Assembly (NCBI GenBank): GCA_002897635.1
Contig: BDTD01000009.1
Coordinates: 54,754 to 118,753 of the forward strand
Source of the DNA: a bacterium BMS3Abin11
GTDB lineage: Bacteria; Pseudomonadota; Gammaproteobacteria; BMS3Bbin11
Direction: 5' to 3'
DNA length: 64,000 bases
The position numbers were made by a program, and so were the translations under genes. The notes below the pieces were generated by a model that saw nothing but the letters and a program-made list of their open reading frames with translations, made no database searches and was not told the DNA's origin. Below, piece by piece: positions 26,267 to 51,695 of the stretch. Numbering within the stretch: the first letter of the stretch is position 1; the number at the start of each line of letters is the position of its first letter.

Positions 26267-27394
26267 TTATTCCGCTTCGCTCTGATAATCCGGTTGCACC
26301 ATGAACCGCCAGTCCTTCCCTATCGGTCTGACATCTTTCACGTTCATATAGACTCTTTGTGCCATGCTATCAAGTCCTGGTATATCAAAAAGCCCCCTGG
26401 CTGCCGAACCCATAATTACAGGCGCCAGGTATAGTACAATTTCATCAACCAGTTCACTGGCCAGTAGACTGCCGCATACGACCGATCCCGCCTCGACCAG
26501 TATTTCATTGCATAAATAGTCTTCCGCCAGGCATTGCAACAGGTGTTTAGAATTTACACGGCCAGACTCACCTGCAGGAAAAGAGCGGATGTCTATTCCA
26601 AATTGCTTTAGTTGTTGAAAGCGGTCATCTTTTTCACTCAGTGCCGTGGCAAGCAACAATGGATGTCCATCAATAAATATTTTTGCCCTGTCAGGGATAC
26701 TAAGCTTGCTATCCATCACTATGCGCAATGGTTGTCTTGCTGCTTCATTCAGCCTGACTGTTAATGACGGGTCATCCGCAAGCACCGTACCGGATCCGGT
26801 CAGAATTGCACTGCTGGCTGCACGTAGGTGTTGTACATCAGCGCGTGCCGCCGACCCTGTAATCCACTGACTTTCACCATTATGCATTGCAGTGCGTCCA
26901 TCCAGCGATGCACCAAGCTTCACCGTCACCCAGGGTCGGCCACGCTTCATTCGACTAACAAAGCCGCGGTTCAGTTCCATTGCCTGCCGTTTTAACAGAC
27001 CACTGCGAACTTTAATACCTGCCTGTTCCAGTTTTTTTATACCCTGCCCGGTCACCAGTGGGTTAGGATCCTTCATCGCGACAATGACTTCATCTACGCC
27101 ACTTTCTATCAAAGCATCTGCACAGGGCGGTGTGCGACCATGGTGTGAACAGGGTTCTAATGTGACATATGCAACTGCACCCTGTGCCTGTTCTCCAGCC
27201 TCTTGCAATGCCAATACTTCAGCATGCTCGCATCCTGCTTTTTTATGCCAGCCCTGAGCAATTATTTTTTCGTCTTTAACAATGACGCAGCCGACACGTG
27301 GGTTTGGCTGGGTAGTCGCTATTCCTTTGCGTGCCAGAGACAGGGCATCAGTCATCATCTGGTGATCGTACGCGCTAAAAATAGTACTGCTCAC
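26267..27394 (-). CDS. ribD: bifunctional diaminohydroxyphosphoribosylaminopyrimidine deaminase / 5-amino-6-(5-phosphoribosylamino)uracil reductase
   Basis: CDA-type HAE...PCSHHGRTPPC zinc motif, then a reductase domain. 375 aa. Confidence 0.9.
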   Translation of the reverse strand: MSSTIFSAYDHQMMTDALSLARKGIATTQPNPRVGCVIVKDEKIIAQGWHKKAGCEHAEVLALQEAGEQAQGAVAYVTLEPCSHHGRTPPCADALIESGVDEVIVAMKDPNPLVTGQGIKKLEQAGIKVRSGLLKRQAMELNRGFVSRMKRGRPWVTVKLGASLDGRTAMHNGESQWITGSAARADVQHLRAASSAILTGSGTVLADDPSLTVRLNEAARQPLRIVMDSKLSIPDRAKIFIDGHPLLLATALSEKDDRFQQLKQFGIDIRSFPAGESGRVNSKHLLQCLAEDYLCNEILVEAGSVVCGSLLASELVDEIVLYLAPVIMGSAARGLFDIPGLDSMAQRVYMNVKDVRPIGKDWRFMVQPDYQSEAE

Positions 27395-36770: not shown

Positions 36771-36775
36771 TTTCT

Positions 36776-37642
36776 CTATTTCTCCGATGACACAGTTTGT
36801 CTTCCCTGATCAGTCCTGGCATAACTGAGATAATATTCTTTATAGGAAATAGGTTTGCTAATGCTAAACAGACACTCAAGTTTTATTAATACCTTTGATC
36901 TGTTGACATACATTAGATAATTAAGATATTTTTTGTTGTCCAGATCAGGATGCATAAAGCGTTCCTGACTGGTATCAATATCATACGGATGCAAATAGGT
37001 TGTTATCGGATCACCCAGTTTTAGATGATAACGAGCAGAATAGTTTATTATCGGATAGGGTATGACCCTGAAATATACCCCACCTGCCAGTGGTAGTCGA
37101 AGAAAAGGTATAGCGTGTAGAGTAATTGGTATTTCGTATATACCCTGAACATATTTTGGTTTACGGCCAAATTCTTTCCAGCCAAACAGTGGATTGGCTG
37201 CAGGTAACACTGAACTTGAATATTTGAAGCCAGATTCTGACAGGCATCTATAGGCCCATTGTGTTTGCTCGGTAAGTGAGAAGGTAGGTGCCCGGTATCC
37301 GATCACATCCTCTGCACCTGCAGTATACAATGAGTCAAGATTTCTCCTGACATCTTTAAGAAACTCTTCCGGTGTCTGTTTGTTTATTTGAATATGTTTA
37401 TCGCTATGACAGGCAATCTCATGACCATCTGCTATTATCTCTTTGATCAATGATGGGTATTTTCTCGCCACATTGCCGACGACAAAAAAAGTTGCCTTTG
37501 CATTATGCTGCTGCAGGAATTCCAGATATCGTTGAGTATTTTCAGGAACGCCCTCTCGATATGTGCTGCCATTTAATATCTGATCTCTAACGTCTTCCAG
37601 ATCAATGCTGAAAAGCAAATTCCCTTTATTTTTTCTGTTCAT
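36776..37642 (-). CDS. NodB-family polysaccharide deacetylase with DUF3473-like C-terminal region
   Basis: NodB motifs present: IDLED (Asp pair), HSDKH (His pair), YRAPTF (RxP). Confidence 0.75.
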   Translation of the reverse strand: MNRKNKGNLLFSIDLEDVRDQILNGSTYREGVPENTQRYLEFLQQHNAKATFFVVGNVARKYPSLIKEIIADGHEIACHSDKHIQINKQTPEEFLKDVRRNLDSLYTAGAEDVIGYRAPTFSLTEQTQWAYRCLSESGFKYSSSVLPAANPLFGWKEFGRKPKYVQGIYEIPITLHAIPFLRLPLAGGVYFRVIPYPIINYSARYHLKLGDPITTYLHPYDIDTSQERFMHPDLDNKKYLNYLMYVNRSKVLIKLECLFSISKPISYKEYYLSYARTDQGRQTVSSEK

Positions 37643-37693
37643 ATGGCCTTCAGCTATAACACGCTGTCGCTGTGAAAGAACGTAGGTTTGTTA

Positions 37694-38566
37694 TCAGTCT
37701 ACGCTACTCCTACGTATCAGGGACAGTTGTTCGGCAAGTAAGCCCAGCAAAAAAAACAATATTCCTGTAATGGTTAGAAGCAATGTACCGGCCTGGACAC
37801 CCTCACCTCTAAGCAGAAAGGGTAAACCCCAGATGATGCCGGCCAGAACAAAAATAATTGCAAGTGGTAGAAATATCCTGTTTGGATTAAATAATATAAC
37901 AATATTCAAAATCTCCAAAATTGTATCCAGTGCTGTCCTTGTATTTATAGTGCTAGTACCTGATATCCGGGACCTGATCTGTATGTCCTTCTCCAGTACA
38001 AGATGTTTTTGATTGATAAACACGAGAGTGATGATGTCGCTATATGCCATAGTATCCGGACATAAACGGATATATTTCTTGGCCAGATCAGATCTGTACA
38101 CTTTCATACCAGAGTTAAGATCAGTAATTTGAAAGGACATCAGTAATTTTGCAATACTACGAATCATGAATTTACCGAAACGTCGGTACCTGGAACCTTG
38201 ATGACTATCTCTCTTACCAATAACCATATCTGCATCAGTCACCATGAGATAATTAAACAACATTCCGATATCATCAAGAGAATGCTGTCCATCTGCATCA
38301 ACAGTGATCAGGAATTCTGTGTCAACCCTTTCAATGGCTGTCTTGATTGCGCTGCCATAGCCCCTGTTTATTTTGTGATGTATAACTGTCAGCATGTCAC
38401 CCTGATCAGCAGCATCAAGAATTTCCCCTGTAGTATCTGACGAGCCATCATTGACAACAATAAGCTTGTAACCATTTTTTCCGCAATACTCGCACATATC
38501 TTCAAGAAATGTAGGTAGCGACCCTTCTTCGTTGAATGCGGGAACAATTATCGTTAGATCTTTCAA
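37694..38566 (-). CDS. GT2 polyprenyl-phosphate sugar synthase (ArnC/GtrB/DPM1-like)
   Basis: IIVPAFNEEGSL...VVNDGSSD...DADGQH GT-A motifs plus two C-terminal TM helices, typical of Und-P-sugar synthases. Confidence 0.8.
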   Translation of the reverse strand: MKDLTIIVPAFNEEGSLPTFLEDMCEYCGKNGYKLIVVNDGSSDTTGEILDAADQGDMLTVIHHKINRGYGSAIKTAIERVDTEFLITVDADGQHSLDDIGMLFNYLMVTDADMVIGKRDSHQGSRYRRFGKFMIRSIAKLLMSFQITDLNSGMKVYRSDLAKKYIRLCPDTMAYSDIITLVFINQKHLVLEKDIQIRSRISGTSTINTRTALDTILEILNIVILFNPNRIFLPLAIIFVLAGIIWGLPFLLRGEGVQAGTLLLTITGILFFLLGLLAEQLSLIRRSSVD

Positions 38567-39088
38567 AAAATCTCTTCCTAGTGCGTTTTTTATGTTTTCG
38601 TAATTTTACCCTGATTGATTATCCCTGCAACTATAATTGGTCTAGTCAACTACGACTCAATCTTCTCGAGATGAGTACAGCATGCCTAAAATGCTTTGCG
38701 ACAATTCTGTTTTGTATCGAAACACTGCTGTCCCATAAATCTGCGGAGGGATATCTCAACGACTGAACACACCTGTAGGTTGGGCTGAAGAATGAAGCCC
38801 AACAATGTTTCTTCTGACACGCTGTTGTTGGGCTTCGTCCCTCAGCGCCAACTTACACGAGAATGACTTTTCATGTCTCTTGCCCTCAATTCTGGCCATA
38901 CTTGAGTAGCTGGAACCCTTAAAAAGAGATTAGGGTGTTTTTTATGGGACAGTAATGGTATCGAAACTAACCAGTGACTAGAAGTTTTCGAACGTCATAA
39001 AAAACTGATTTACGCTTTACCCTGTGAAAACAGGTGGTTTATACTTCCAGCACCTCCTGGGTGCCGTCCCATTCACTGGATTATTTCC

Positions 39089-40903
39089 ATGTCTTTAAAT
39101 AACAAGTACGTCACCTTCCTGCTTTCTGTTTCGATATTTATCTTATTCTTTAGCTTTTTTTTTATTACATCTAATATTCTACCTCAGGGTGCAGGCCCAG
39201 ACTGGAAATCGAATACCGATGTAACAAAATTTATCTATGAAAATGGCAGGCTGGCAGTTCTCCCTGATGACGAAAAGGATTTGCACTTCACGGTTTATGG
39301 TGGCACGCGGGCACTAAGACCGCCCCTTTCCTATATCGTGTCCGCAGTTGCTGCAAAAGCTCTTGCATTCACCAATCTTGATTCATATGTGCTGTTTCGC
39401 AAAGGATCCGCACTTTTATGTGCCTTAGCCCTGGCTCTAACATTTTATGCTCTGAGTATTTACTTTAACAGTTATGCAATTGGGATTTTGGGCTCCACAA
39501 TTATAGGTCTAATGCCGCAATTCACTTTCATTGCTTCATATAATAATGATGACAGCGGTGCAATTTTCTCTGCCACACTTATGATTGCCGTGCTGGTTCG
39601 TATATACCGTTATGGGGCATCAAATACCAATGCAATTTTACTCGGCCTTGCTGGCGGACTAGTCGTGCTTTCAAAGATGACTGCATGGCTATTAATGCCA
39701 TCTGTCGTTCTATTTCTAATCATTTTCTTCCGGTCTCCTGTGCGCTCACTACTGCGTTACGCCTCCATTGCAGGAGTGGTCTTTATTCTAGCTGGCGGCT
39801 GGTGGTTTGCGTTTAACACCTATCACTATGGGATCGATGATCCACTGCTGAAAAAAATTACCACCACAGTAATAGAGCAGCACAGGCGTCTGCCACCGGG
39901 TTCAGGTGTAGGATTTGCCGCACAGGGAATAGGCTTTTATGAATTATTTGCTGAAAACTATAAAAATTTCCTCGGCGAAACGGCTAAGGCAACCATCGGT
40001 AATCTGGACTGGCTAAAGCTAAAAGTTGGCCCGCTACAGTACACTGTCTATCTGGGTATTTTCTTTTTTGCCCTGTTCTATTATTTTTTCAGCCTATCGG
40101 CATATCTGATAAAACGATTCAGGAATGTAACCGTAAATGATGAACATACCAGGCAGTTAATATTCGAATCACTGCTGCTGTTGATGATAGTTTTTCAGAT
40201 AACCATGTATACCTGGACCAATATCAATAATGATATACAGATACAGGGAAAATACATCATCCCTATTTTTCTTGCCATCCTGCTTTTATTCTTTTCCGGA
40301 ATATATCGATTACCGGGAGTGACCGCCGTTTCAATCAGGAAATTGTCTGAATCGGGTTTCCCTGTAAACGCTTCAAATACTGGCAGGTTTGGTGTATTTT
40401 TGGCAAGCCTGATGTTTATTGTCTATGTACACTGGGATGCATGGCAGAATTATATCATCCCATTTTATCAACCACCTGCGTATGATATAAAGCTGGGAGA
40501 ATTTCATTCTATTCCACTAAATTTAGATCTGAACCAGCGCGCAGATAATCTGGATATACGAGAAACCGGTGGAGGTATTGAGTATATTTCCACAGGTAAA
40601 GACCCAAAAGTCATCTTTAAAAAGGATATCTGCCAGAAGATTTCAACAACATCGATGTTATATCTTGAGTTTAATGCAAAGAATGCAGACACCCTCCAGT
40701 TCTTCATCGATGAAGGTGGAGGTTTTTCGGCGAATATTTCATCCACTGCTACTTATAAACAGGGAGACAACACCCTTTTGCTCCCAATTTCAGCTAACAA
40801 GTGTCAATATCTGCGTTTCGATCCATTTATCGAAAATGGGACATTCATCCTGAAGAAATTTAAGATTGCACCAATGACGATTGTCCCAAGACGAAAGAAT
40901 TAA
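39089..40903 (+). CDS. GT-C glycosyltransferase of the ArnT/PMT (GT39/GT83) type
   Basis: 604 aa. First-loop DDEKDLHF and RPPLSY motifs, about 12 TM helices, a C-terminal about 150-aa soluble domain. Divergent from the GT2-deacetylase operon. Contains a T9 tract near the 5' end. Confidence 0.7.
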   Translation: MSLNNKYVTFLLSVSIFILFFSFFFITSNILPQGAGPDWKSNTDVTKFIYENGRLAVLPDDEKDLHFTVYGGTRALRPPLSYIVSAVAAKALAFTNLDSYVLFRKGSALLCALALALTFYALSIYFNSYAIGILGSTIIGLMPQFTFIASYNNDDSGAIFSATLMIAVLVRIYRYGASNTNAILLGLAGGLVVLSKMTAWLLMPSVVLFLIIFFRSPVRSLLRYASIAGVVFILAGGWWFAFNTYHYGIDDPLLKKITTTVIEQHRRLPPGSGVGFAAQGIGFYELFAENYKNFLGETAKATIGNLDWLKLKVGPLQYTVYLGIFFFALFYYFFSLSAYLIKRFRNVTVNDEHTRQLIFESLLLLMIVFQITMYTWTNINNDIQIQGKYIIPIFLAILLLFFSGIYRLPGVTAVSIRKLSESGFPVNASNTGRFGVFLASLMFIVYVHWDAWQNYIIPFYQPPAYDIKLGEFHSIPLNLDLNQRADNLDIRETGGGIEYISTGKDPKVIFKKDICQKISTTSMLYLEFNAKNADTLQFFIDEGGGFSANISSTATYKQGDNTLLLPISANKCQYLRFDPFIENGTFILKKFKIAPMTIVPRRKN

Positions 40904-41399: not shown

Positions 41400-41745
41400 T
41401 TACTCCCACTCGAGATTATAAATAGCCCGACAAAGTCCATTACTAGCGCGGGTTTCCCAGTGGCCGATGGTGCGCGCCAGATGGGTAAGCTCGGCGCTGG
41501 TGGGCGCCTTGACCCAGCGGAACCGGGTGCTTCCATCGGAATGGTCAGTGTACACACCATCGAGGAACAACATATGGAAATGGATATTCAGATTGAGTGC
41601 CGAGCCAAACCGCTGGATGAGGGTGACCGCCCCGGTCCGGGCTGTCTTTTTTGTCAAGCCCGCTTTCTTGATCAGATGGGTGGCAATCACACGGTAGACA
41701 ATGCCGAGCACCCCGCCCGTGACGGCCGGGTGGATTACCAGGGTG
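41400..41745 (-). pseudogene. IS91-family (HUH Y2 rolling-circle) transposase internal fragment
   Basis: ...VYRVIATHLIKKAGLTKKTARTGAVTLIQRFGSALNLNIHFHMLFLDGVY... matches my memory of the IS91-family catalytic region. It is truncated at both ends. High G+C begins here. Confidence 0.55.
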
Positions 41746-42682
41746 CCCGACTGTTGCTGAGGCACAGATCTACCAGGTCGTCGAGGCGCGCGGTCCCGGC
41801 ACACATCACGGTATCCGCGCCACCCCAGTAAATCTTTACGCCGCCGTCGTCATCCGCGACTGCACCGCAGGTAAAAACGACGTTGTGTACATAGCCCGTG
41901 ATCTCCCAGGGATCCTCTGGGGCTAGCACCCATTCATCCGAAACGCCGATAATCTTCGCCGGATTGGCAAGATCGTGCAGCGCCACGCCGAGACGATAGA
42001 CTGCCCCGTCCATGGTCTCGAATACCCCGTGGTAGATGCTGAGCCAGCCGCGTTCGGTGCGGATCGGTGTCGCACCGGGACCGATCTTCGACTCGTCCCA
42101 GTGATACGGCACCGGCTTCATCACCACCTCGGAATCGCCCCAGTGCACCAGGTCCGGCGACCATGACAGCCACACGGACCAGGGGCTGATCTCCGAATGC
42201 GGTCGGTCCAGGCGGGCGTAGCGGCCGTTGAACCGCTGCGGAAAGATAACGACATTGCGCATGTCCGCCTGGGTGATCAACGCCACGCGCTCAATGGATC
42301 GGAAATCACAGGTCCTGGCCAGCCCGATACGCACACCGTGGCGCGAATAGGCGCTGTAGGTAATCAGGTATTCCCCGTCTATACACGAGATTCTGGGGTC
42401 CTCCACCCCAAAAGCCTCGTATTCACCAAAGGCGCCATCTGTCGACGGCACCAGGAACGGCTCCGGGCCGACCGTAAATTTGAAGCCGTCCTCACTCTCG
42501 GCGATGCCGATGATCGACCGGCCGCTACGCAGGTGGGATCGAAACAGCATGATGGTGCGGCCGTCGTATTGTGTCATGCCGGCGTTGTGCACGGTCTCCA
42601 CCGGGTAGGGGATGTCGTCCCGCGTAAGGATCGGGTTGTCCGGACAGCGTTCGATGATTGGCGGTGGTTTAGCTGCGGTCAT
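41735..42682 (-). CDS. GH130 family glycoside hydrolase / beta-mannoside phosphorylase-like
   Basis: Five-bladed beta-propeller GH130/DUF377 signature (NPIL...DIPY, FNAG, EDPRI, YSAY, PWE). The start ATG is preceded by GGAGG. Overlaps the upstream gene's stop by 14 nt. Confidence 0.75.
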   Translation of the reverse strand: MTAAKPPPIIERCPDNPILTRDDIPYPVETVHNAGMTQYDGRTIMLFRSHLRSGRSIIGIAESEDGFKFTVGPEPFLVPSTDGAFGEYEAFGVEDPRISCIDGEYLITYSAYSRHGVRIGLARTCDFRSIERVALITQADMRNVVIFPQRFNGRYARLDRPHSEISPWSVWLSWSPDLVHWGDSEVVMKPVPYHWDESKIGPGATPIRTERGWLSIYHGVFETMDGAVYRLGVALHDLANPAKIIGVSDEWVLAPEDPWEITGYVHNVVFTCGAVADDDGGVKIYWGGADTVMCAGTARLDDLVDLCLSNSRAPW

Positions 42683-44015
42683 AGTCATCCTCCAGCCGGA
42701 TAATATCGTCTTCCCCGAAATAATCTCCCATCTGCACCTCGACCAGAACCAGCGGGATATCACCGGGGTTCGTGATCCTGTGCACTGCACCCTTTGGGAC
42801 ATCCACGGACTGCCCCGGCCTGAGCGGGATTTCCTGATCCCCCACGGTGACCAGCGCTTCGCCACTGACCACGGTCCAGTGCTCGGCCCGGCGCCGGTGC
42901 TTCTGCAGGCTCAGCCGCTGGCCCGGTTGGACGATGATCTCCTTGATTTTGTGATCATCCCGCTCGAGCAGGTTTTCATAGTGTCCCCACGGCCGATAGT
43001 TCTCCCGCTGGTCGAGGATGCTCTGGTAGACCTCCAGGTAGGCGCGTGCCATGTGCCGGCTGGTAAAGCGCTGTTCCACCTCGTCCCGGCAGGCGCGCCG
43101 GTCGAGCGAATCAATCCTGTCCACCGCCTGTACCGCGGCGTTCACATCGGCCACGATGAATCCCGTCTGGCCGTCGCGAATGAGTTCCGGCATTGAGCCC
43201 CGCCCATAGGCGATCACCGGCGTGCCACAGGCCATGGACTCGACCACGCTCAACCCGAACGGTTCGTCGAAGTGAATCAGGTGCAACAACCCCAGCGCAC
43301 CGCCCAGAAGTTCCTGTCTCTTCTCCGGCCCGACGGAGCCAACATATTCCACCATGGATCCATCGATGTGCGGCTCGACCTGTTCCTGGAAGTATGCCTC
43401 GTCCTGCACGATCCCGGCAATCACCAGCCGTAGTCCGGCCCTGCGCGCCACCTCAATGGCATCGTGGACACCCTTATGGTGGTGGATACGCCCGAAGAAC
43501 AACAGGTAGTCTCCCGCGTCTTCGCGGTAGGGGAATTGTGCGAGATCGATGCCATGATGGATGGTTGCGGCGTAATCGAGTTCACAGCTCCTGTCGGCCT
43601 CACTAATGGCCACATAATAGGTGCTGTCATTGTACTTTTTATAAACGGGCAAAATCGACGGCGAAGAGAATCCATGGATCGTCGTGACCAGCGGTGTAGG
43701 GGTAAAACCGCTGTAACTGAGCGGCAGAAAATCGAACTGGTTGTGGATGAGGTCGAACTCATCCGCCCGCCTGAACACCTCGGCGATATGCAGGCATTCC
43801 CAGACCTTGGGATCAATCGAGGGGTCTTCTGAGTAAGGGCGTTCACAAACCCAGGAAAGTTTACCACGGGTAATGGAATCCCCGGTCGCAAACAGTGTCA
43901 CATCGACACCCATCGCCACCAGCTGTTCTGTCAGGAGGCTGACCACATTTTCCCACGGCCCGTAATGGCGTGGGGGTGTGCGCCAGGACAAGGGACTCAA
44001 CATCGCAATCTTCAT
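42669..44015 (-). CDS. GT4 glycosyltransferase fused to a C-terminal mannose-6-phosphate-isomerase-type cupin
   Basis: GT-B/GT4 core (E..GG motif region, EPFGLSVVESMACGTPVIA) followed by the cupin HRRRAEHWTVVSGEALVTVGDQEIPLRPGQSVDVPKGAVHRITN. Confidence 0.7.
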   Translation of the reverse strand: MKIAMLSPLSWRTPPRHYGPWENVVSLLTEQLVAMGVDVTLFATGDSITRGKLSWVCERPYSEDPSIDPKVWECLHIAEVFRRADEFDLIHNQFDFLPLSYSGFTPTPLVTTIHGFSSPSILPVYKKYNDSTYYVAISEADRSCELDYAATIHHGIDLAQFPYREDAGDYLLFFGRIHHHKGVHDAIEVARRAGLRLVIAGIVQDEAYFQEQVEPHIDGSMVEYVGSVGPEKRQELLGGALGLLHLIHFDEPFGLSVVESMACGTPVIAYGRGSMPELIRDGQTGFIVADVNAAVQAVDRIDSLDRRACRDEVEQRFTSRHMARAYLEVYQSILDQRENYRPWGHYENLLERDDHKIKEIIVQPGQRLSLQKHRRRAEHWTVVSGEALVTVGDQEIPLRPGQSVDVPKGAVHRITNPGDIPLVLVEVQMGDYFGEDDIIRLEDDYDRS

Positions 44016-44327
44016 AAAAGAGGCCTGCGTGAACACCTGCGCGCGATCCACGCGCCAGCGGGGTGTTGTTATGATCAGGAACAAATCTGATAGCACAGTA
44101 ACACGATTTGCCTGACGGGCTACAATAACAAAACACCTGACAAAACGAAACCACCGCCCATTCAGATAAGGCTTGGACAGGGTGGAAATTTTACCCTTGC
44201 TGCCGCTAAAGATAGTATAGTGTGTTGAAACAAAAATAGTCTAATCTATTGCCAATTCAACTATAATCCGATATAGCCTGCCACGCAGACCGAACCAGGC
44301 GCAGAGGGCTTGTACCACGTGGAAGCA

Positions 44328-45812
44328 ATGAAAATGGAAAGCAGACCTGACCCCACCACTCCACTCGCGCGGCGCAAGTCGATCGTGATGAAGGCGAAGA
44401 TCAGTCGCGTCATTACCCGGCCGTATCTGCCGTCCGGTGAAGAACGCATCCAAAAAGTTATCCAGCGGGTGTTGAGCCTGGACGAGAATGAGGCGGATAC
44501 GGTGCTGGAAACCCTCTTGCAGGATTTTTCCCACCGCCACCGCTACTTCAGGGAGACCCTGGAGCAAAATTTTGCACGGGTAGCTGACTTTTTGCCGGAT
44601 ATCGATCAGGTATCGAAGCAACGGCGGCTTCTGATCGGCGCGTACTTTACCGCGGAATACTCAGTGGAGGCGGCGGCGTTGTTCAATCCCTCAATCGTTC
44701 AGGTTCCGAACCAGGAGGCGGATCCTGAAGGCACCTGCCGGTTTGTTATGAGCTTCCGTGCCACTGGTGAAGGCCACATCTCCTCCATCGAGTTTCGCAG
44801 CGGGGTTATCGATACCAACAACGATATCTACTTCGATGGCCTGAGCGACTACGTAGCAACCCCGGAAATCCACCCCAACCCAAGCTATGACCGGCACCTG
44901 TTTCGGCTGAAACTCCAGGAGATGGGGGCGAATAATGCGGTAACGCACCAGCTTCTAAACAGGCTGCCGGACAATTTCACCTTCAACGATCTGCAGGGAA
45001 AGATCGCCGAACTCCAGAACAACGGCCAGTTTCCGCCACAGGAGCAGACGGATGCCATTGACATGGCAATGTGGCTGGCGCAATCCAATTACCAGATTTT
45101 GTTTCGCAAGGAACACGCAATTTCCGAGCGGGTGATCTTTCCCGTGTCGGAATCCGAGCGCAAGGGGATCGAGGATGCCCGCTTTGTACGTTTCGTCGAC
45201 GACGACGGCACGGCGGTCTACTACGCCACCTATACCGCGTACAACGGAGAGACGATCCTGCCGCAACTCATCGAGACCCGCGATTTCCTCTCCTTCAAGC
45301 ACATTACGCTGAATGGAGCCCAGGTACAGGGCAAGGGCATGGCCCTGTTCCCGAGAAAGATTGGGGGCAACTACGTGATGCTGTCGCGCCAGGATGGTGA
45401 GAACAATACCATCATGTTCTCGGACAACCTGCACTTCTGGCAGCAGGCCCAGATTCTTCAGGAGCCTGAGTTCCCCTATGAATTCATACAGATGGGCAAC
45501 AGCGGCTCACCCATCGAGATGCCCGAAGGCTGGCTGGTCGTGACCCACGGGGTGGGTCCGATGCGGACCTACAGCCTCGGCATCGAGTTGCTCGACCTGG
45601 ACGACCCGACCCGGATCATCAACCGGATTGAGGAGCCGATCCTGGTGCCGAATGCGTATGAGCGGGAGGGGTATGTCCCGAACGTGGTTTACAGTTGTGG
45701 CGCACTCATCCACCAGGACGAATTGATCATCCCCTACGCCTCGGGCGACCAGCGCTGCGGCATAGCAACCCTGCAGCTACCACAGCTGATGGCCAGGCTG
45801 ACAGCACGGTAG
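44328..45812 (+). CDS. GH130-like beta-propeller protein with an uncharacterised about 250-aa N-terminal extension
   Basis: C-terminal about 240 aa shows GH130/DUF377-like blocks (GIEDARFVRFVDDDG...YYATYTAYNG, GWLVVTHGVG, PNVVYSCGA). I recognise no family for the N-terminal half. The ATG at 44328 follows a GGAAG RBS; the listed ORF starts at an upstream TTG. Confidence 0.6.
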   Translation: MKMESRPDPTTPLARRKSIVMKAKISRVITRPYLPSGEERIQKVIQRVLSLDENEADTVLETLLQDFSHRHRYFRETLEQNFARVADFLPDIDQVSKQRRLLIGAYFTAEYSVEAAALFNPSIVQVPNQEADPEGTCRFVMSFRATGEGHISSIEFRSGVIDTNNDIYFDGLSDYVATPEIHPNPSYDRHLFRLKLQEMGANNAVTHQLLNRLPDNFTFNDLQGKIAELQNNGQFPPQEQTDAIDMAMWLAQSNYQILFRKEHAISERVIFPVSESERKGIEDARFVRFVDDDGTAVYYATYTAYNGETILPQLIETRDFLSFKHITLNGAQVQGKGMALFPRKIGGNYVMLSRQDGENNTIMFSDNLHFWQQAQILQEPEFPYEFIQMGNSGSPIEMPEGWLVVTHGVGPMRTYSLGIELLDLDDPTRIINRIEEPILVPNAYEREGYVPNVVYSCGALIHQDELIIPYASGDQRCGIATLQLPQLMARLTAR

Positions 45813-45828
45813 GGAATGGTAGTCGTCG

Positions 45829-48198
45829 CTATTCCGACGATACTTTCTGAACATCAAGCCGGGTGGGCTCTTCCTCCGGTGTAACCCGATCCCAGCTGCG
45901 GTGGTTATAGACGGCGAGCAGCGCCATGAGCCAGCAAAGCGTGGACTCTGCGCCCTGATTTTCATTCGCGCCCTGCGCTTCCAGCCCGTCCCGGCAGCCG
46001 CCGGTCGCATAATCGCAGAGCGGAACCCCCAGATCGTTCTCGCCTTGGTACCAGTTGAGACAACGGTAGGCATAGGTAATCCATTCCTCATCCCGCGTGC
46101 AGTTGAATGCCTCGATACAGGCGTCCACCATCGCGGCCGCCTCGATGGGTTGTTGATCGAATCGCGCTTTTTCGCCGCCTCTGGGAAACCAGCCGTGATT
46201 GCCGATAGCGACAAAGTGCCGGCCCTTCTCATCGGTCTGAACCTGCTTCAACCAGTCGAGAGAGCGCAACCCCATCTCCAGCATCTCGCTGTCGGGAAGC
46301 CACTGCCCAGACAGCAGTAAAGCCTGTGGCAACCGGGCATTGTCGTAGGTCAGGATGTTGTCACACCAGGGCCAGTCTTCGCTGGCGCACCCCAAGGGCA
46401 CTTCCTGCGGGGCGAAATCCCTGAACCGCTGCATCAGTCGTTCCGAGAGTATCTTGCGCATCATTTTCGCGCGGCTGTCCCCGCTGTAGCGGCCCAGATA
46501 GGCATGAATACCGATAATGGCGAAGGCAATCGCCCGTGGGTGGGTGAAATGTTCGGTGGCGTCCAGTGCACGATGGAACAGGTCGACCGAAAAACCCACC
46601 TGCCCCTTATCCCGCCCCAATGCCACTGCGACGCCCAGCCCCCACACCGCACGACCGTGGGAGTCCTCCGAACCTGTTCCCTCTAGCCAGTAGCGATCAT
46701 AGGACATAAAGTTGCGGAAGCGGCCGGTCTGGTCATTGAAGGCGTGACCCAGAAAACTCAGATAAGTGGCGGCAAGGCCGCTTTGTGCTGAATCCAGAGG
46801 CTGGAGGTCCTGTAGCGTGACCGCGACGATCAACGCGCGGGCATTATCGTCCACGCAATAGCCGTGTGTCCGGTCTGCAACCGTGTACTTGGCGTGTTGC
46901 AACATACCCGTGTCATCGGTCATCCGGCGTAAATAGTCCAGCTTGATCTCCGGTAGCCGTTGCTGGCGTAGTCCGAGGGTCTCCAGCCCGCGCCTGGGTA
47001 CGTTCTTCCTCAATCGCTGTCGTTTGGCTTCTGCAAAGGTGTCGAGATAGCGGCGGCCTACATCACTCCAGACCATTTTGCGACCGTATTGATAGGCCCT
47101 CTCCTGGATGGCGCGGCACTCATCGGGATGATCCAGGAGGTCGATGACTTCCCGCGCCAGAGCGGCCTGATCCCGGAATGGAACCAGCCTGCCCCGATCA
47201 TCAGCGAGCAACTCCTGAGCGTGCCAGAAGGGTGTGGATATCACCGCTTTGCCCATCCCAAGCGCATAGGCAAGCGTGCCGGAAATAATCTGCGCCTCAT
47301 TCAGGTACGGAGTGACATAAATATCTGCCACACCGATAAACTCCAGCAGATCTTCGTCGGCAACGAAACGATCATGAAAAACAATGTGCTCCGAAACGCC
47401 GAGTTCTTTTGCACGCCTGTGAAGGCTGTTTCTGTAATCCTCCCCATCTTCCATCTTAAGGTGCGGATGGGTGGCGCCTACCACCATATAGATGACCTGC
47501 GGGTGGGCCTTCACGATCTCCGGCAAGGCATCTATGACCACCTCAATGCCCTTGCCCGGCGAAAGCAGGCCGAAGGTCAGGATGACTTTCTTTCCGGATA
47601 CGCCGAACTTGTCCTTGTAGGCATCGGATTTGACAAACGGCACGTCAGGGATGCCATGATGTATAAGGACAATCTTCTCCTCCGGCACCTGGTAGATATC
47701 GCGCAGGAATTCGACTGAGCGTTCACTCATCACCACCAGCCGGTCTGAGAACTCGGCAAGTTGCATCATGATGTGCCGGTCCTGAAGGTTCGGATCCTTC
47801 AGGATTGTGTGCAGAGTCGTCACAACCGGCATATTGAGATTACGCAGCAGCTCGATAATAAAGCTGCCCCGCTTGCCACCAAAAATACCGTATTCATGCT
47901 GGAGACAGATCACATCCACCTGGTTAAGGTTGCATAAGTCGGCCGCCAGGCTGTATTCGTTCAGTTGAGACTGGTTGATCTCGAAGCGCACCTGAGACGG
48001 GTAGGAATAGCCTGTTGGCCGGTCGTTCATTGCGACCGCCCAACAGGCTTTGTCCGGTGCATTCAGCGCGATGGATTCAAGCAGGTGGGTGGTGAACGTG
48101 GCGATACCACACTGCCGGGGGAGGTGGTTGCCGATGAGGACGATCGACTTGAGAGCCTCCCATTCTGGTCTTGAGCCTGTCGTGCCGAAGTTATCCAT
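45829..48198 (-). CDS. 789-aa fusion: N-terminal GT4 glycosyltransferase plus C-terminal about 400-aa alpha/alpha-barrel glycoside-hydrolase-like domain
   Basis: N-terminal half has GT4 features (GG-loop, FGLLSPGKGIEV, E..G..V.ST). The C-terminal half (HGYCVDDNARAL..., ENQGAEST) tentatively resembles (alpha/alpha)6 hydrolases. Confidence 0.6.
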   Translation of the reverse strand: MDNFGTTGSRPEWEALKSIVLIGNHLPRQCGIATFTTHLLESIALNAPDKACWAVAMNDRPTGYSYPSQVRFEINQSQLNEYSLAADLCNLNQVDVICLQHEYGIFGGKRGSFIIELLRNLNMPVVTTLHTILKDPNLQDRHIMMQLAEFSDRLVVMSERSVEFLRDIYQVPEEKIVLIHHGIPDVPFVKSDAYKDKFGVSGKKVILTFGLLSPGKGIEVVIDALPEIVKAHPQVIYMVVGATHPHLKMEDGEDYRNSLHRRAKELGVSEHIVFHDRFVADEDLLEFIGVADIYVTPYLNEAQIISGTLAYALGMGKAVISTPFWHAQELLADDRGRLVPFRDQAALAREVIDLLDHPDECRAIQERAYQYGRKMVWSDVGRRYLDTFAEAKRQRLRKNVPRRGLETLGLRQQRLPEIKLDYLRRMTDDTGMLQHAKYTVADRTHGYCVDDNARALIVAVTLQDLQPLDSAQSGLAATYLSFLGHAFNDQTGRFRNFMSYDRYWLEGTGSEDSHGRAVWGLGVAVALGRDKGQVGFSVDLFHRALDATEHFTHPRAIAFAIIGIHAYLGRYSGDSRAKMMRKILSERLMQRFRDFAPQEVPLGCASEDWPWCDNILTYDNARLPQALLLSGQWLPDSEMLEMGLRSLDWLKQVQTDEKGRHFVAIGNHGWFPRGGEKARFDQQPIEAAAMVDACIEAFNCTRDEEWITYAYRCLNWYQGENDLGVPLCDYATGGCRDGLEAQGANENQGAESTLCWLMALLAVYNHRSWDRVTPEEEPTRLDVQKVSSE

Positions 48199-48529
48199 AG
48201 ACGCCTTTTTTTTGCCGGTATTGTTGTGCCGGTGGGTGAATGATTCGATGTTGATACTCCAGTAGTCGAATGCCGCCAGATTGAGAAGCGTACTGCCACT
48301 CGTCAGCTGCCCCTATCTTACATGAATTCAAGGTGATTGGTCGGCTGGACGCCAGGCACCGCAAAACCAGACCACACGTTTTTAAGGTACGTGATATTTT
48401 TAACGCCGATGGGCGGTTACACACCTGCCTTTTTCACGTACGGTATTTTTTTAGAGACACCCTCATCTCGTTGGCGATGTGCTCGAAAGCCTCATACAAT
48501 AAGTTAAAAGCCCCCTACTACAACTTACA

Positions 48530-49726
48530 TCATAATTCCATTATTCCTGACACATTAGGGTGCCTATCAACACGATAGCCTGATTCAACCACGAACTGTG
48601 TCCCAAACATCTTTAAGTTTTCAACTAAATTTTTGCAATATTGAAACCCCGTCTGAGCATCCATTCTTTCCTGGTGTAGGCTTTTTTGCAGCTCGGTTTC
48701 AGATAAATTATCTGCCAGACAGGTCACACTCGTCGGTTTTTTGTTATAAACGTGCGTGTTTAGATCGCTCTCGGCTCGATGCCCCTGAGCATAATAATCC
48801 ACAACCATCTGTATGGCTAAAAATTGGACTTGCGGTTTTTCACTACCCAGCATCAAGAGATCAAAAAATATTTTTGGTAAGTTGAGATCACCCTGACCCA
48901 TTTGAACTCCCAGCTGTGCCCAATATTTGTCGCTCCTGGCTATGAGGACATCCTTGCAATGCGCACCGCGAATATATTCCTGTAAAACCATTATATCGTC
49001 TAACGGCTCTCGGCCAGCTGTAACGGGATTGCCAAAGTCAAACAAAATACCAAGACTGGGATTATTGACGGCCTTAACAATTTCCAGCATTTCAGGACCT
49101 GTTAAGAATTCGTGTTGCTCCAGAAGAAGTTCAATACCCCATTTTTCCACCAATTCAGCGGCGTAACAAAGATCTTTAATCGCTTGCTCGACAATTTCAG
49201 AAAAAGTGCCACCCAATCTGATGTAGCAACGAATAACCGGAACGCCCATGGCACGGGCAACGCGAACCGCTTCTTCAATTTCGCTTTTATCCGTGGAACT
49301 AATATCTATCTGTAAGTCGAGCCTGCGCTCTTTTTTCTGGTATGCAAGATCACGCAGATATTCGTCCGATTCACCTGTCAAGCAAATACAAGGATCGCCT
49401 TTGGCTACATGGAGTTGCGCGCCCGCAAATCCCCACTTTCGCGCATAGGCTAAAAATTCATCGATGGTCAGCTGGTCATGCTTGAAATTAAGCTCCAGAC
49501 TATAACGGTTTAAATACCAAATAATATCATCAACCCGAGTGACAATTATTTTTGCCAAATTTTGATCCAGTATTGGAATTGGAATTCCAGCTACAGGGCC
49601 TCCCGATGGGTTAAGGAATTCCTGGAATTGTTGATTTGCGATCACGCTAGAAGGGGTAAATGTTGATTCATTTATTTTGCCAAACTTGTTAAAATTATTC
49701 ATTTTTAGTCCTGTAATGATTGCCAT
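48530..49726 (-). CDS. sugar-phosphate isomerase/epimerase family protein (xylose-isomerase-like TIM barrel)
   Basis: 398 aa, AP-endonuclease-2 / XylA-like TIM-barrel blocks (E...H..D.G.G...E). Longer than typical family members at both ends. Confidence 0.6.
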   Translation of the reverse strand: MAIITGLKMNNFNKFGKINESTFTPSSVIANQQFQEFLNPSGGPVAGIPIPILDQNLAKIIVTRVDDIIWYLNRYSLELNFKHDQLTIDEFLAYARKWGFAGAQLHVAKGDPCICLTGESDEYLRDLAYQKKERRLDLQIDISSTDKSEIEEAVRVARAMGVPVIRCYIRLGGTFSEIVEQAIKDLCYAAELVEKWGIELLLEQHEFLTGPEMLEIVKAVNNPSLGILFDFGNPVTAGREPLDDIMVLQEYIRGAHCKDVLIARSDKYWAQLGVQMGQGDLNLPKIFFDLLMLGSEKPQVQFLAIQMVVDYYAQGHRAESDLNTHVYNKKPTSVTCLADNLSETELQKSLHQERMDAQTGFQYCKNLVENLKMFGTQFVVESGYRVDRHPNVSGIMEL

Positions 49727-49982
49727 CTACAACGTAGGCGTTCTACCTGGCGTGGTTAGCCTTGCTCTACGAGATTTTAACTATTTAAGGGAATTCTAAA
49801 TATGAAATGTGTCAGTTTGACTACATTGAAATGATTAGAGCGAGAATACGTCTGTTCGTTGGAGCAACATAACGGGTTAATCCAAGTTCCCCTAGATCGT
49901 GGGACTCATCAAAAAGAGGTTATGGCGTCACTTTTCTCTGGTTGAAAAATTGTTAAATTATTCGTAACTATTCGATCTAATC

Positions 49983-50121
49983 AACCTGAATTCGGGATAA
50001 GAAAAACCGGTTTCATTACCGGGGCATTAAGCATTCTCTCATACGTAAACACTTAATTTTGTTCTTACCGTCTTTTATTCGGGAGTCTGAACGGCTTAAT
50101 TTCTTATCCCGAATTCAGGTT
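49983..50121. repeat. perfect 22-bp inverted repeat pair (AACCTGAATTCGGGATAAGAAA) flanking a 95-bp spacer
   Basis: 49983-50004 is the exact reverse complement of 50100-50121. Lies in a 630-bp ORF-free stretch. Confidence 0.6.
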
Positions 50122-50340
50122 AATCAAAGATATCGACACTGACTTTAGATCGGGTTACGAAGAAACTCAAGAGTCCCGAATTCTTACCCGGACGTGATGC
50201 GGAAAACGTCCATTCTATCAAGGTCTTGTCTTTGAGCAATGAATTTCGCAAAGCTATGGCTGTGAGAGTTCGCCAAGAGAAATTCTACGAATATCTCGTT
50301 CGGTAATACTTCCAGAAGTGATTACCTGGGGTTTGATGAC

Positions 50341-50457
50341 ATGGTGATTGGCGATCCAGGGCAAATAAGCCCGGTGCCCGAACCCGCCACCCTCGCACTA
50401 TTCGGCATCGGTCTTGCTGGTCTGGGATTTGCCCGAAAGAAAAGAAAATCTGCATAA
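50341..50457 (+). pseudogene. orphan PEP-CTERM sorting-signal remnant (38 codons)
   Basis: Encodes MVIGDPGQISPVPEPATLALFGIGLAGLGFARKKRKSA*: a PEP motif, a hydrophobic helix and a basic tail. The frame is closed by TGA 27 codons upstream of the ATG, with no signal peptide or mature domain. A terminator follows. Confidence 0.55.
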
Positions 50458-50466
50458 CTTCAACTT

Positions 50467-50490
50467 AACCCGCTTCGGCGGGTTTTTTAT
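50467..50490 (+). terminator. rho-independent terminator
   Basis: AACCCGCTTCGGCGGGTTTTTT: GC stem, a 4-nt loop, then a T-run. Confidence 0.7.
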
Positions 50491-50599
50491 TGTCTGATTA
50501 TCTGGTGTGGTAAGTGCCCGGTTGTGGCCGATAAAAGGCCTTCTCTGAGAGTATAGAAGATATAGAGAGTATAGGAAGAATAAACACCCTTTTTGACCA

Positions 50600-50950
50600 A
50601 GTCCAGCGGCCGTTCACAGCCTATGCCCTGCGCGGTAGCCGTTCGACGCCGAGGAACCCGGCCTGAATTCCGCTTCCAGCGCCAACAATCGAGGATCTTC
50701 TGGATCACCACCGGATCTTCGATGCAGGCGAGAGCCTGCCTCGCGAGCGTAGCGAGTGCTTTGGGCATGACTTTGACTGGCCACCGCATTCACGACACGT
50801 CTCGATGTCGATGCCGAAAACCCGCTTCAGGCGCTGCGCCCAGGTTAATGCCAGGGTGGCATGTATCACTCCCACTCGATTGTAAACGAGCCGGGAAAAG
50901 CCAGTATTGGTGCGGGTTTCAGTGTGGTCATAAGTATCAATACCATGAAA
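50600..50950 (-). pseudogene. IS91-family transposase C-terminal remnant (frameshifted)
   Basis: Minus-strand translation gives ...LTWAQRLKRVFGIDIETCRECGGQ... in one frame and ...ACIEDPVVIQKIL... in another, resembling my recollection of the IS91-family C-terminal region. High G+C like the 41.4-kb fragment. Confidence 0.45.
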
Positions 50951-51090
50951 AATACCATGATAAATGTTTATTGCTAATTACCACTATCCAAAGCCAGCGC
51001 CGTGGCAGATACCATTCCCGACTACCTTTACAATAGACCTATATATGGACTATATTTAGTACCAATTAAACCGGCGAGGAAATACAAACC

Positions 51091-51372
51091 ATGAAATTGA
51101 GTGAATCGGTAAAACCCATCAGCTACTTGAAAAGCCACACCGCCGAGGTTCTGCGGGACGTCAGCGAGGGGCAACGTACCATGGTGATCACACAACACGG
51201 CGAAGCCAGGGCAGTGCTCCAGGACATTGCCAGTTATGAACAAACCCAGGAATCTCTGGCGCTGCTCAAGATGCTGGCCCAAAGTTCCAAAAGTATTCAG
51301 GAAGGCCGCAGCAAACCCATCAAAAAAGCCTTTGCAGATGTTCGCAAACATATTCGGGAAATCACTGAGTGA
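51091..51372 (+). CDS. type II antitoxin, Phd/YefM family
   Basis: 93 aa with a YefM/Phd-like N-terminus (MKLSESVKPISYLKSHTAEVLRDV...TQHGEARAVL). Overlaps the downstream toxin gene by 4 nt. Confidence 0.8.
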   Translation: MKLSESVKPISYLKSHTAEVLRDVSEGQRTMVITQHGEARAVLQDIASYEQTQESLALLKMLAQSSKSIQEGRSKPIKKAFADVRKHIREITE

Positions 51373-51695
51373 AACGCTATCGTGTCCGGCTTACCGAGGA
51401 TGCAGAGCAGGATCTGATCGACATCTACCACTACATTGCGTTCCATGACTCCGTGGAGAACGCAGATTATGTACTGGATCAGCTGGAATCACTCTGCTCG
51501 CGGCTTACCGATCTGTCCGAGCGGGGCCACGTTCCGCCCGAGCTGGTTCGAATCGGAGTAACAAACTATAAAGAGGTCAACTTCAAGCCGTATCGTGTTA
51601 TCTACGAAGTGATCCGGCAGGATGTTTTCATTCATTGCATCCTGGATGGCCGCAGGGATATGCCATCATTACTCGAGCGACGCCTGATTCGTTAG
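51369..51695 (+). CDS. type II toxin, RelE/ParE family
   Basis: 108 aa, ParE-like fold signature (RVRLTEDAEQDL..., RELRIGNYRVIY-type motif YRVIYEV). Confidence 0.75.
   Translation: MKRYRVRLTEDAEQDLIDIYHYIAFHDSVENADYVLDQLESLCSRLTDLSERGHVPPELVRIGVTNYKEVNFKPYRVIYEVIRQDVFIHCILDGRRDMPSLLERRLIR

Follow-up and report, generated by a model that had tools for sequence, protein, structure and literature searches.

In Leishmania, the intracellular β-mannan mannogen is recycled via GDP-mannose and mannose 1-phosphate (Man1P) by GT108 dual transferase-phosphorylases, which have a GH130 fold (PMC8950772, PMC10913872). Characterized GH130 β-mannoside phosphorylases include TM1225 and UhgbMP (β-1,4 type) and Teth514_1788 and Lin0857 (β-1,2 type). 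Two further systems rely on GT4 glycosyltransferases: TeGSS is a cyanobacterial UDP-Glc:sucrose/glucosylsucrose α-1,2-glucosyltransferase (PMC9909042), whose product is a cytoplasmic, stress-induced oligosaccharide, and the mycobacterial methylmannose polysaccharide system has ManT (GT4) and MmpH, an (α/α)6 hydrolase (PMC9883506). Here we analyzed a block of four genes, A to D, in a window of 64,000 nucleotides from the gammaproteobacterial genome BMS3Abin11. B, and probably C, has the propeller of the characterized GH130 enzymes, and both keep the catalytic Asp and basic phosphate-site triad, but they stand beside biosynthetic GT4 genes and not in mannan or N-glycan utilization loci. The activity types that are separate in ManT and MmpH appear to be fused in D, which, however, has no sequence-level homology to MmpH, and the block has no methyltransferases.

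Domains of the four proteins

Gene A (42669..44015, minus strand) encodes 448 aa, with a GT4 domain (residues 1-336, DNA 43008-44015) followed by a MannoseP_isomer cupin of the type II phosphomannose isomerase (PMI) kind (residues ~336-443, DNA ~42687-43010); the Pfam matches are PF00534 (1e-24), PF13439 (1e-8), and PF01050 (2.6e-40). As in D, a Glyco_transf_4 N-terminal domain and a Glycos_transf_1 C-terminal domain make up the GT-B fold. The whole GT4 domain (residues 1-336) aligns to residues 4-344 of TeGSS (PDB 7fg9, tll1591) with 45% identity (E 1.4e-80). Equivalents of the catalytic Y18, R179 (GR motif), and K184 (KG motif) and of the EPFGL Glu are conserved in A, and that of W10, which in TeGSS stacks against the fructose moiety of sucrose (PMC9909042), is offset by one position. 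Judged by this alignment, A and glucosylsucrose synthase have closely homologous GT4 domains, but the donor and acceptor of A cannot be read from 45% identity to a UDP-glucose-using enzyme. A differs from TeGSS in bearing, in this clade, the C-terminal PMI-type cupin and in sitting with two GH130 genes, not beside sucrose-phosphate synthase (SPS). The cupin matches PF01050 at 137.6 bits (cut-off 23.6, profile positions 9-116 of 116), its motif reads LSLQKHRRRAEHW, and its closest solved relatives are cupins of 105-116 aa (7zvy and 7zvm), one of which is named mannose-6-phosphate isomerase. TIGR01479, the bifunctional GMP/PMI model, is matched only over the last 111 positions of the model, so A has no guanylyltransferase domain.

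The A stop codon (TAA, 42671-42669) overlaps the start of gene B (ATG at 42682) by 14 nt, as the sequence-only reading had noticed; a GGAGGA Shine-Dalgarno sequence lies inside A at 42694-42689, and overlaps of 4-17 nt recur in distant copies. Gene B (41735..42682, minus strand) encodes a 315-aa GH130 protein (PF04041, E 8e-54, 183 bits against a cut-off of 26, profile positions 34-318 of 320). Its best PDB match, over the full length, is TM1225 (E 8.6e-57), a β-1,4-mannooligosaccharide phosphorylase (PMC8950772). In the alignment to 4udg, D104, R150, N151, R168, and H231 of UhgbMP correspond to D95, R142, N143, R160, and H218 of B, all invariant across 11 homologs, and B thus carries the phosphorylase signature of a catalytic Asp and three basic phosphate-binding residues. 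On these sequence grounds, B is a five-bladed-propeller GH130 of the phosphorylase type.

Gene C (44334..45812, plus strand; 492 aa; PF04041, E 3e-32) is a longer GH130 protein. The Pfam match is confined to residues ~264-492, within the putative propeller (residues 263-492, 45120-45809). The conserved N-terminal region (residues 1-262, 44334-45119) had been described as belonging to no recognizable family, and indeed neither Pfam nor the PDB yielded a sequence match to it, also when a profile of 13 sequences was used; the characterized GH130 enzymes that C matches do not have this region. The AF2 model of C was poor (pLDDT 59). The catalytic Asp and basic phosphate site of C (D281, K334 with Lys replacing Arg, R352, and H405) show no variation across 34 sequences. 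At the position of UhgbMP R150-N151, B shares R-N with the β-1,4 enzymes TM1225 and UhgbMP, and C shares K with the β-1,2 enzymes Lin0857 and Teth514_1788. Both proteins score below the NCBIfam equivalog cut-offs for β-1,2-mannobiose phosphorylases, B with 234 and C with 132 vs 550 for NF050092, and B with 193 and C with 149 vs 450 for NF052550, so no specificity can be assigned from these models.

Gene D (45829..48198, minus strand; 789 aa) converges on C, with a gap of 16 nt. Its GT4 domain (residues ~18-395, DNA ~47014-48147; Pfam matches at residues ~90-390) has the GDP-mannose-dependent PimA and PimB' as best sequence matches. The last ~390 aa have no Pfam match. Fold similarity bore out the (α/α)6-like domain proposed from the sequence: in the AF2 model, of moderate quality (pLDDT 71), the C-terminal half (residues ~420-765, DNA ~45904-46941) is predicted to be an (α/α)6-barrel-like fold resembling GH76 α-mannanases and AGE-family epimerases. 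Membership of either family was not found by Pfam or by known catalytic residues, and the donor and acceptor specificity of D cannot be read from the modeled fold. The sole sequence homolog of the barrel is YPO2471 of Yersinia pestis (PDB 7TEM), a stand-alone protein, unlike the fused D, which its structural-genomics depositors named "putative exported protein"; our literature search found no paper on its function, and no function can therefore be transferred to D. The GH130, GT4, and cupin assignments of the sequence-only reading were all upheld by Pfam profile matches. By eye, none of the four N-termini, including that of B, has a signal-peptide-like hydrophobic stretch.

The cassette was exchanged more recently than its hosts diverged

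In 1-kb windows, G+C is 0.53-0.62 across 41.5-48.0 kb, against 0.39-0.44 at 36-41.5 kb and 0.41-0.47 beyond 48.5 kb. GC3 is 0.75, 0.73, 0.75, and 0.69 in the four genes, against a mean of 0.437 (sd 0.06) in the 40 other long ORFs of the window. The G+C-rich block and the shift to GC3-rich codons, first noticed by eye, are thus real. Its extent had been put at 41.4-48.2 kb; the left border held, and the right border moves out to ~48335-48350 because ~135-150 nt upstream of D are conserved in other copies of the cassette. This non-coding leader or promoter region (48199..48335, minus strand) is 75-89% identical in nucleotides to the corresponding stretch of at least 12 further loci, one of them in a Nitrospinota MAG, and it contains the palindrome TGAATTCA followed by TAAGAT; it had no Rfam match and no consensus RNA structure. 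It belongs to the cassette. The divergent A-C intergenic region (44016..44333) is also partly conserved by blastn, with pieces 77-90% identical in L084, L022, L023, L020, L007, and other loci, and it has two sites that resemble consensus promoters, a weak line of evidence.

On the left, the block adjoins tadA (40925-~41398, minus strand), as first described, and an IS91-family fragment that had been seen at this boundary was confirmed by a match to PF04986 (E 6.2e-8, profile positions 1-59 of 183). This Y2_Tnp transposase remnant (41403..41759, minus strand) was delimited by six-frame translation and Pfam; it consists of 119 codons without a start codon, reads GAVTLIQRFGSALNLNIHFHMLFLDGVY, and meets the 3' end of B with a slight overlap. 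The related genome L084 has the first 31 codons of the remnant directly after B (84% amino acid and 87% nucleotide identity), and the remnant is the left edge of the foreign block. ISCR-type elements can mobilize neighboring DNA from a single end. The block resembles such IS91/ISCR arrangements in having the remnant directly at one end but differs in that we found a fragment of the transposase rather than an intact Y2 gene with element ends, and identified no ori or ter ends. IS91 is not a general vehicle, since other copies adjoin IS256, IS3, or IS6, or are plasmid-borne. The block combines features of a genomic island, namely a compositional break, the trace of a mobility gene, and a divergence younger than that of its flanks. 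There is no tRNA gene in 36-54 kb, no integrase ORF within the block, and no pair of direct repeats flanking it.

L084 has the same synteny (xseA-guaB-guaA-[D C A B]-tadA-mltF), and the island proteins are 87-94% identical, whereas the flanking proteins are 77% (GuaA), 75% (GuaB), 58% (TadA), and 41% (XseA) identical. Exchange of the cassette is far younger than the divergence of the host genomes. It could be argued that the four genes are native and owe their shifted G+C and codons to selection for expression, without transfer, as biased codons are possible in highly expressed genes and two related genomes carry the cassette at one chromosomal site. This explanation is highly improbable: at identical residues, the proportion of identical codons between the island and L084 is 0.73-0.80, against 0.40-0.44±0.02 expected from its own codon usage, whereas the flanking housekeeping genes are at saturation (guaA 0.39 vs 0.39 expected, guaB 0.43 vs 0.37). 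The claim of foreign origin is therefore upheld beyond G+C alone. Native genes would also not be expected to be 80-82% identical in amino acids to copies in genomes labeled Nitrospirales and Nitrospinota (80% for L028, a closed Nitrospirales chromosome in the high-identity clade), to keep a constant G+C in that clade (0.55-0.59) while the host flanks vary from 0.46 to 0.63, to border an IS91 remnant, or to have plasmid-borne copies.

D and C form the conserved core of the cassette

The four genes had been taken to form no recognizable operon, implying a one-off arrangement. This does not hold, as the same genes recur in distant genomes and on conjugative plasmids under generic names. D, C, A, and B occur together, in two layouts, in nearly all of the long-enough loci among ~80-83 fetched from a genome collection, a co-occurrence conditional on D, through which the loci were fetched. 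The genes recur in >8000 protein clusters and are found together in genomes bearing about a dozen different phylum labels, as well as on plasmids from cultured strains; the majority of loci come from MAGs, with taxon labels given by the depositors. RefSeq names are generic only, including on the plasmids of cultured strains, and our literature search found no paper on the four-gene module. On a conjugative plasmid of Ilyobacter polytropus DSM 2926, A-B-C-D lie beside IS256 and recombinases, and in Novosphingobium, D-C lie between IS6 and IS3. The conserved core is D plus C and not A plus B; A is missing from the alphaproteobacterial versions and so is not the core. No other neighboring gene is conserved across 85 loci, and the module lacks a conserved phosphomannomutase, phosphatase, or regulator. 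We regard the block as a self-contained cassette that moves by horizontal transfer, bounded by the IS91 remnant and its own conserved promoter or leader.

Proposed pathway and alternatives

GT4 enzymes are retaining and form α-linkages, whereas those of GH130 invert the configuration of their β-mannoside substrates and release α-Man1P (PMC8950772, PMC4599007). The initial proposal that GT4 builds a β-mannoside that GH130 remobilizes is stereochemically inconsistent with this, and the two classes must therefore act on different bonds. The broader notion of a pathway for a compatible solute or a storage sugar remains the best reading. We give about an even chance to a pathway in the cytoplasm by which a mannose-containing oligosaccharide or glycoside is made and recycled, most likely for protection against stress or as a small carbon reserve. 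A cytoplasmic location would fit the four N-termini, which look unlike signal peptides, and the finding of no transporter or export gene conserved beside the cassette across 85 loci. In such a pathway, the two retaining GT4 domains (the N-terminal half of D, and A) would build an α-linked core from nucleotide sugars and lengthen it, with A probably adding α-1,2-linked hexoses by analogy with glucosylsucrose synthase. B and C would reversibly add and remove β-mannosyl residues with α-Man1P and phosphate, B resembling in sequence β-1,4-type and C β-1,2-type enzymes, and phosphorolysis would recover the sugar phosphate without ATP. The modeled (α/α)6 domain of D may trim, prime, or epimerize the glycan. 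The cupin of A, as a putative isomerase, would link Man6P to Fru6P, which would need a phosphomannomutase encoded elsewhere.

The mannose link comes from context. In Rhizobium, an AGE-family epimerase follows D-C, and PMIs of three annotated kinds recur beside or fused to the module: in this window, the PF01050 cupin is fused to A; in Devosia and Sinorhizobium, a class I PMI gene stands ahead of D-C, and in Croceicoccus one lies near C; and in Sphingomonas koreensis, ManC precedes D-C amid Hsp20, DnaK/GrpE, HAD-IIB, USP, Dps, and BON genes, a stress-island context seen in only one or two sphingomonad plasmids. This recurrence of unrelated PMI and ManC forms beside the D-C core speaks against a glucose-based, sucroglucan-like pathway, in which A would extend sucrose or another non-reducing sugar with α-1,2-glucose as TeGSS does, D would make the primer, the GH130s would have non-canonical roles or substrates, and mannose would be peripheral. 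We consider such a pathway unlikely: A is not part of the core, D best matches PimA and PimB' and is not matched by the NCBIfam SPS model, and every characterized GH130 phosphorylase acts on β-mannosides (PMC8950772).

The likeness of the GT4 half of D to phosphatidylinositol mannosyltransferases would also fit synthesis of an envelope glycan or glycolipid (LPS, capsule, EPS, or a PIM-like mannolipid), with the GT4s building the chain and the GH130s acting as β-mannosyltransferases or editors. Loci for envelope glycans typically contain GT4 enzymes, weak GDP-Man transferase activity is known for some members of GH130 (PMC12814180), and arn-like envelope genes lie 0.8 kb from the block. However, these neighbors are low in G+C, genome-specific, and absent from L084, the informative contexts are PMI and stress genes rather than envelope loci, and no flippase, polymerase, polyprenyl-phosphate transferase, transporter, export, or membrane protein gene is conserved beside the cassette across the 85 loci, so that an envelope role is not likely.

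A third possibility is that imported β-mannosides, derived from plant or yeast mannan or from N-glycans, are salvaged for catabolism, the classical role of GH130, with PMI feeding glycolysis. It is suggested by the mostly catabolic role of characterized GH130 phosphorylases, which are partnered with AGE-family epimerases and PMI (PMC4264767, PMC8950772), and by the AGE-family epimerase next to D-C in Rhizobium. Salvage seems quite improbable, as the cassette is not accompanied by a transporter, binding protein, secreted hydrolase, or sugar regulator, the operon includes two GT4 domains of synthase type as integral parts, and many carriers are, by taxon label, chemolithoautotrophs or sulfate reducers. 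Mannan feeding is not expected in such organisms.

The synthesis and recycling of a mannose-containing product would resemble the mannogen cycle in function only, as a reserve built and recycled by GH130-fold enzymes; it differs in that the Leishmania cycle is eukaryotic and uses GT108, without a GT4 or (α/α)6 partner. More tentatively, the cassette may encode an undescribed pathway whose product is a compatible solute or reserve oligosaccharide that contains mannose and is itself new. This would be the bacterial equivalent of the mannogen cycle, with an α-linked product of GT4 as its primer. Such a pathway would have spread horizontally among marine chemolithoautotrophs, sulfate reducers, and soil alphaproteobacteria. 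Two of its parts, the N-terminal region of C and the GT4-fused, YPO2471-like (α/α)6 domain of D, would then each be the founding member of a new CAZyme module.

Foreign origin of the G+C-rich block

In 1-kb windows, G+C rises from 0.39-0.44 at 36-41.5 kb to 0.54-0.62 at 41.5-48 kb and falls to 0.41-0.47 past 48.5 kb, the remainder of the 64-kb window lying at 0.41-0.51. The GC3 of the four genes in this block is 0.69-0.75, against a mean of 0.437 (sd 0.06) in the 40 other long ORFs of the window, so the shift in composition and codon usage noticed in the sequence-only reading is real. Gene B (41735-42682, minus strand) encodes a GH130 protein; gene A (42669-44015, minus) a GT4 domain with a PF01050 cupin; gene C (44334-45812, plus) a protein whose GH130 domain is confined to its last ~230 residues; and gene D (45829-48198, minus) a GT4 domain together with ~390 residues that belong to no Pfam family. 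These genes and domains match that first description, as do the 14-nt overlap between A and B (A stop TAA at 42671-42669, B ATG at 42682), with GGAGGA 7 nt upstream of the B ATG, and the remnant of an IS91-family transposase (119 codons; PF04986, E 6e-8) at the left border, adjoining tadA. No tRNA, integrase, or direct repeats were found at the block borders.

The same gene order, xseA-guaB-guaA-[D C A B]-tadA-mltF, is found on a contig from a hydrothermal-vent gammaproteobacterium (L084). Between the two, the island proteins are 87-94% identical, as against 77% for GuaA, 75% for GuaB, 58% for TadA, and 41% for XseA. At identical residues, the island genes use the same codon in 73-80% of cases, where their own codon usage predicts 40-44% (±2%), whereas guaA and guaB, at 39% and 43%, equal expectation, indicating that their synonymous sites are saturated. 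Codon bias cannot account for the island similarity, and it is thus very improbable that these are native genes with a codon bias. The tract common to both sequences extends from ~150 nt upstream of D into the IS91 remnant, of which it takes in the first 31 codons; this places the exchanged DNA at ~41.4-48.35 kb. The block is foreign DNA, and its exchange was recent. Since the 31 IS91 codons also lie directly 3′ of gene B in L084 (16601-16733), the cassette-IS91 junction is older than the last exchange between the two lineages. Other hosts in the same high-identity clade, among them a Nitrospinota MAG and a closed Nitrospirales chromosome (80-82% protein identity), carry the cassette at G+C 0.55-0.59 within flanks of 0.46-0.63. 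The locus offers a clean case of transfer: guaA and tadA mark a conserved position on the chromosome, and between them the cassette has been acquired or replaced.

Several neighboring regions also deserve mention. Next to tadA, 35058-40903 (G+C 0.39-0.42, GC3 0.34-0.43) holds three envelope-type genes, for a GT2 glycosyltransferase, a polysaccharide deacetylase with DUF3473, and a 604-aa PMT_2-like membrane glycosyltransferase, which we take to resemble ArnC, ArnD, and ArnT of lipid A modification. L084 has an SLT-domain (mltF-like) gene beyond tadA in their place, and the region may be a second, A+T-rich acquired block. On the other side, the cassette-guaA interval (48530-51695) contains a 398-aa xylose-isomerase-like TIM-barrel gene (AP_endonuc_2), a ParE toxin gene, and beside it a small antitoxin-like gene, called PhdYeFM in the L001 gene calls. 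In L084 the same interval holds just a 93-aa ORF, which makes it look like a spot of recurrent insertion. The sole other ORF of the window with island-like codon composition (16028-16867, minus; 280 aa, NosD/right-handed β-helix domains, GC3 0.71) may be another foreign gene. A second deaminase-like match, 14 kb from tadA (26936-27367, minus; 29% identical to L084 TadA), is probably a different gene of the cytidine/deoxycytidylate-deaminase fold, such as ribD.

Domains of the four proteins and the leader of D

All of the catalytic domains are members of known families or bear a resemblance to one. The GT4 domain of A aligns end to end with the glucosylsucrose synthase TeGSS (PDB 7FG9, E 1.4e-80) and keeps its catalytic Tyr18, Arg179, and Lys184. 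In cyanobacteria, TeGSS acts as a UDP-Glc:sucrose/glucosylsucrose α-1,2-glucosyltransferase, and its products are oligosaccharides induced by stress (PMC9909042). A glucose-based, sucroglucan-like pathway would fit this likeness; given the mannose-related genes described below, we consider it unlikely. The rest of A matches the whole PF01050 profile and is a putative cupin of the phosphomannose isomerase (PMI) type. B is a full-length GH130 protein closest to TM1225 (E 8.6e-57), a β-1,4-mannooligosaccharide phosphorylase (PMC8950772), and it shares with the phosphorylase UhgbMP both the catalytic Asp and an Arg/Arg/His phosphate site (PMC4599007, PMC8950772).

As first described, the N-terminal part of C is not a recognized domain: its 262 residues have no match in Pfam or PDB. 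Clustered at 50% identity, they make up a family of 1507 clusters, in which the architecture is nearly always the same. As a possible duplicated or disguised GH130 blade, the region was compared with GH130 by hhalign, which gave E 0.47 over its whole length and E 0.039, in a weak alignment, for a sub-region. The weak alignment hints that residues ~105-170 could be the first propeller blade, with helical insertions on either side. The AF2 model of D is of moderate confidence, and that of C is too poor to decide the blade question. No functional papers were found on YPO2471, whose structure is 7TEM.

Upstream of D, ~135 nt of non-coding sequence (48199-48335, minus) is 75-89% identical in at least 12 other cassette copies. 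This leader holds a perfect palindrome, TGAATTCA, and after it a -10-like hexamer, TAAGAT. A riboswitch or structured leader was considered and rejected, as there was no Rfam match at E ≤ 1 and RNAalifold gave no consensus pairs; a protein operator and promoter therefore seem likelier.

Distribution of the module

Protein searches with D and with C each returned at least 8000 clusters at 90% identity, under about a dozen phylum labels. The four-gene neighborhood recurs in other genomes: in the 80 loci fetched through D, so that co-occurrence is conditional on D, C is present on every long-enough contig, and A and B on nearly all. Most of these loci are MAGs, with taxonomy as assigned by their depositors. 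One layout, D→ ←C A→ B→, is found in sulfur-oxidizing Gammaproteobacteria, Nitrospinota, and Nitrospirota. The other is a co-directional operon, D-A-B-C or D-C-A-B, of Desulfobacterota, Zixibacteria, Ignavibacteria, Planctomycetota, Fibrobacterota, WOR-3, and Spirochaetes, and in most of these loci A has no cupin. Two loci, from a Desulfarculaceae MAG (L057, 12116-13015) and an unclassified bacterium (L080, 3052-3948), are variant in composition: the long C-type gene was not detected, and between D and A there is instead a second short GH130 gene, with only 40% identity to B. No further conserved neighbor (phosphomannomutase, phosphatase, transporter) was seen in 85 loci.

Cultured carriers include Ilyobacter polytropus DSM 2926, Desulfobacter curvatus DSM 3379, Sinorhizobium, Devosia, and Sphingomonas. 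Among PLSDB plasmids, the conjugative pILYOP02 of I. polytropus carries all of A-D, flanked by IS256 and recombinases, a Chondrinema plasmid carries C, A, and D, and many Sphingomonadales and Rhizobiales plasmids carry the D-C pair alone. D plus C thus forms the core. On a Sphingomonas koreensis plasmid (NZ_CP018821.1, 91941-112193), ManC-D-C lies in a block of stress genes (two Hsp20, DnaK/GrpE/J-domain, HAD-IIB hydrolase, universal stress protein, Dps, BON-domain protein) adjoined by a tyrosine recombinase gene, a candidate transferable stress-tolerance island. RefSeq names are generic ("glycosyltransferase family 4 protein", "glycoside hydrolase family 130 protein"), and we found no study of this gene cluster in the open-access full-text literature; it is thus not an annotated operon of established function.

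A possible mannose pathway and its meaning

A link to mannose is suggested by recurrent neighbors. Besides the cupin fused to A in the window, ManC precedes D-C amid the Hsp20, DnaK/GrpE, HAD-IIB, USP, Dps, and BON genes of S. koreensis, a class I PMI gene is found ahead of D-C in Devosia and Sinorhizobium and close to C in Croceicoccus, and an AGE epimerase follows D-C in Rhizobium. By eye, none of the four N-termini has a signal-peptide-like stretch, and the 85 loci show no conserved gene for transport or export next to the module. These observations combined lead us to infer a cytoplasmic pathway. Synthesis of an envelope glycan or glycolipid, for which GT4 domains would also be suited, is accordingly doubtful, and salvage of mannosides by a catabolic route, to which GH130 enzymes would lend themselves, appears improbable.

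The sequence-only reading had proposed a cycle in which GT4 builds the β-mannoside that GH130 remobilizes. This does not hold for a single bond: GT4 enzymes are retaining and give α-linkages, whereas GH130 enzymes are inverting and release α-Man1P from β-mannosides (PMC8950772), so the two classes act on different bonds. In the cytoplasmic pathway that we propose, the GT4 domains would use nucleotide sugars to assemble an α-linked core and chain, on which the two GH130 enzymes, with Man1P and phosphate, would reversibly place or remove β-mannosyl residues. The D barrel would trim, prime, or epimerize, and the cupin would connect Man6P to Fru6P; the product would be a stress protectant or a small reserve. 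We give this scheme, all of whose catalytic steps are inferred, about even chances.

Among known systems, those that come closest are TeGSS, the GH130 phosphorylases, the structural-genomics orphan 7TEM, the Leishmania mannogen cycle, as a functional analogy only, and the mycobacterial ManT/MmpH pair, as an architectural one. The mannosylglucosylglycerate pathway was dropped as unsupported, since papers describe GpgS, MggA, MggB, and an MggS not clearly placed in a family, and a GH130 link was not confirmed. The GH130 cluster known from Thermoanaerobacter (PMC4264767) is not the same locus either, having 12 genes and an ABC transporter. The novelty lies in the mobility of the module and the conserved combination of its parts, and also in the GT4-barrel fusion and the long GH130 architecture. 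If the proposal is right, 7TEM would gain a function and GH130 a new accessory module, and there may be new phosphorylase specificities useful in oligosaccharide synthesis. It would also mean that a widespread intracellular sugar, with the enzymes that make and recycle it, has been overlooked in carriers some of which are important to the cycles of sulfur, nitrogen, and carbon in the sea.
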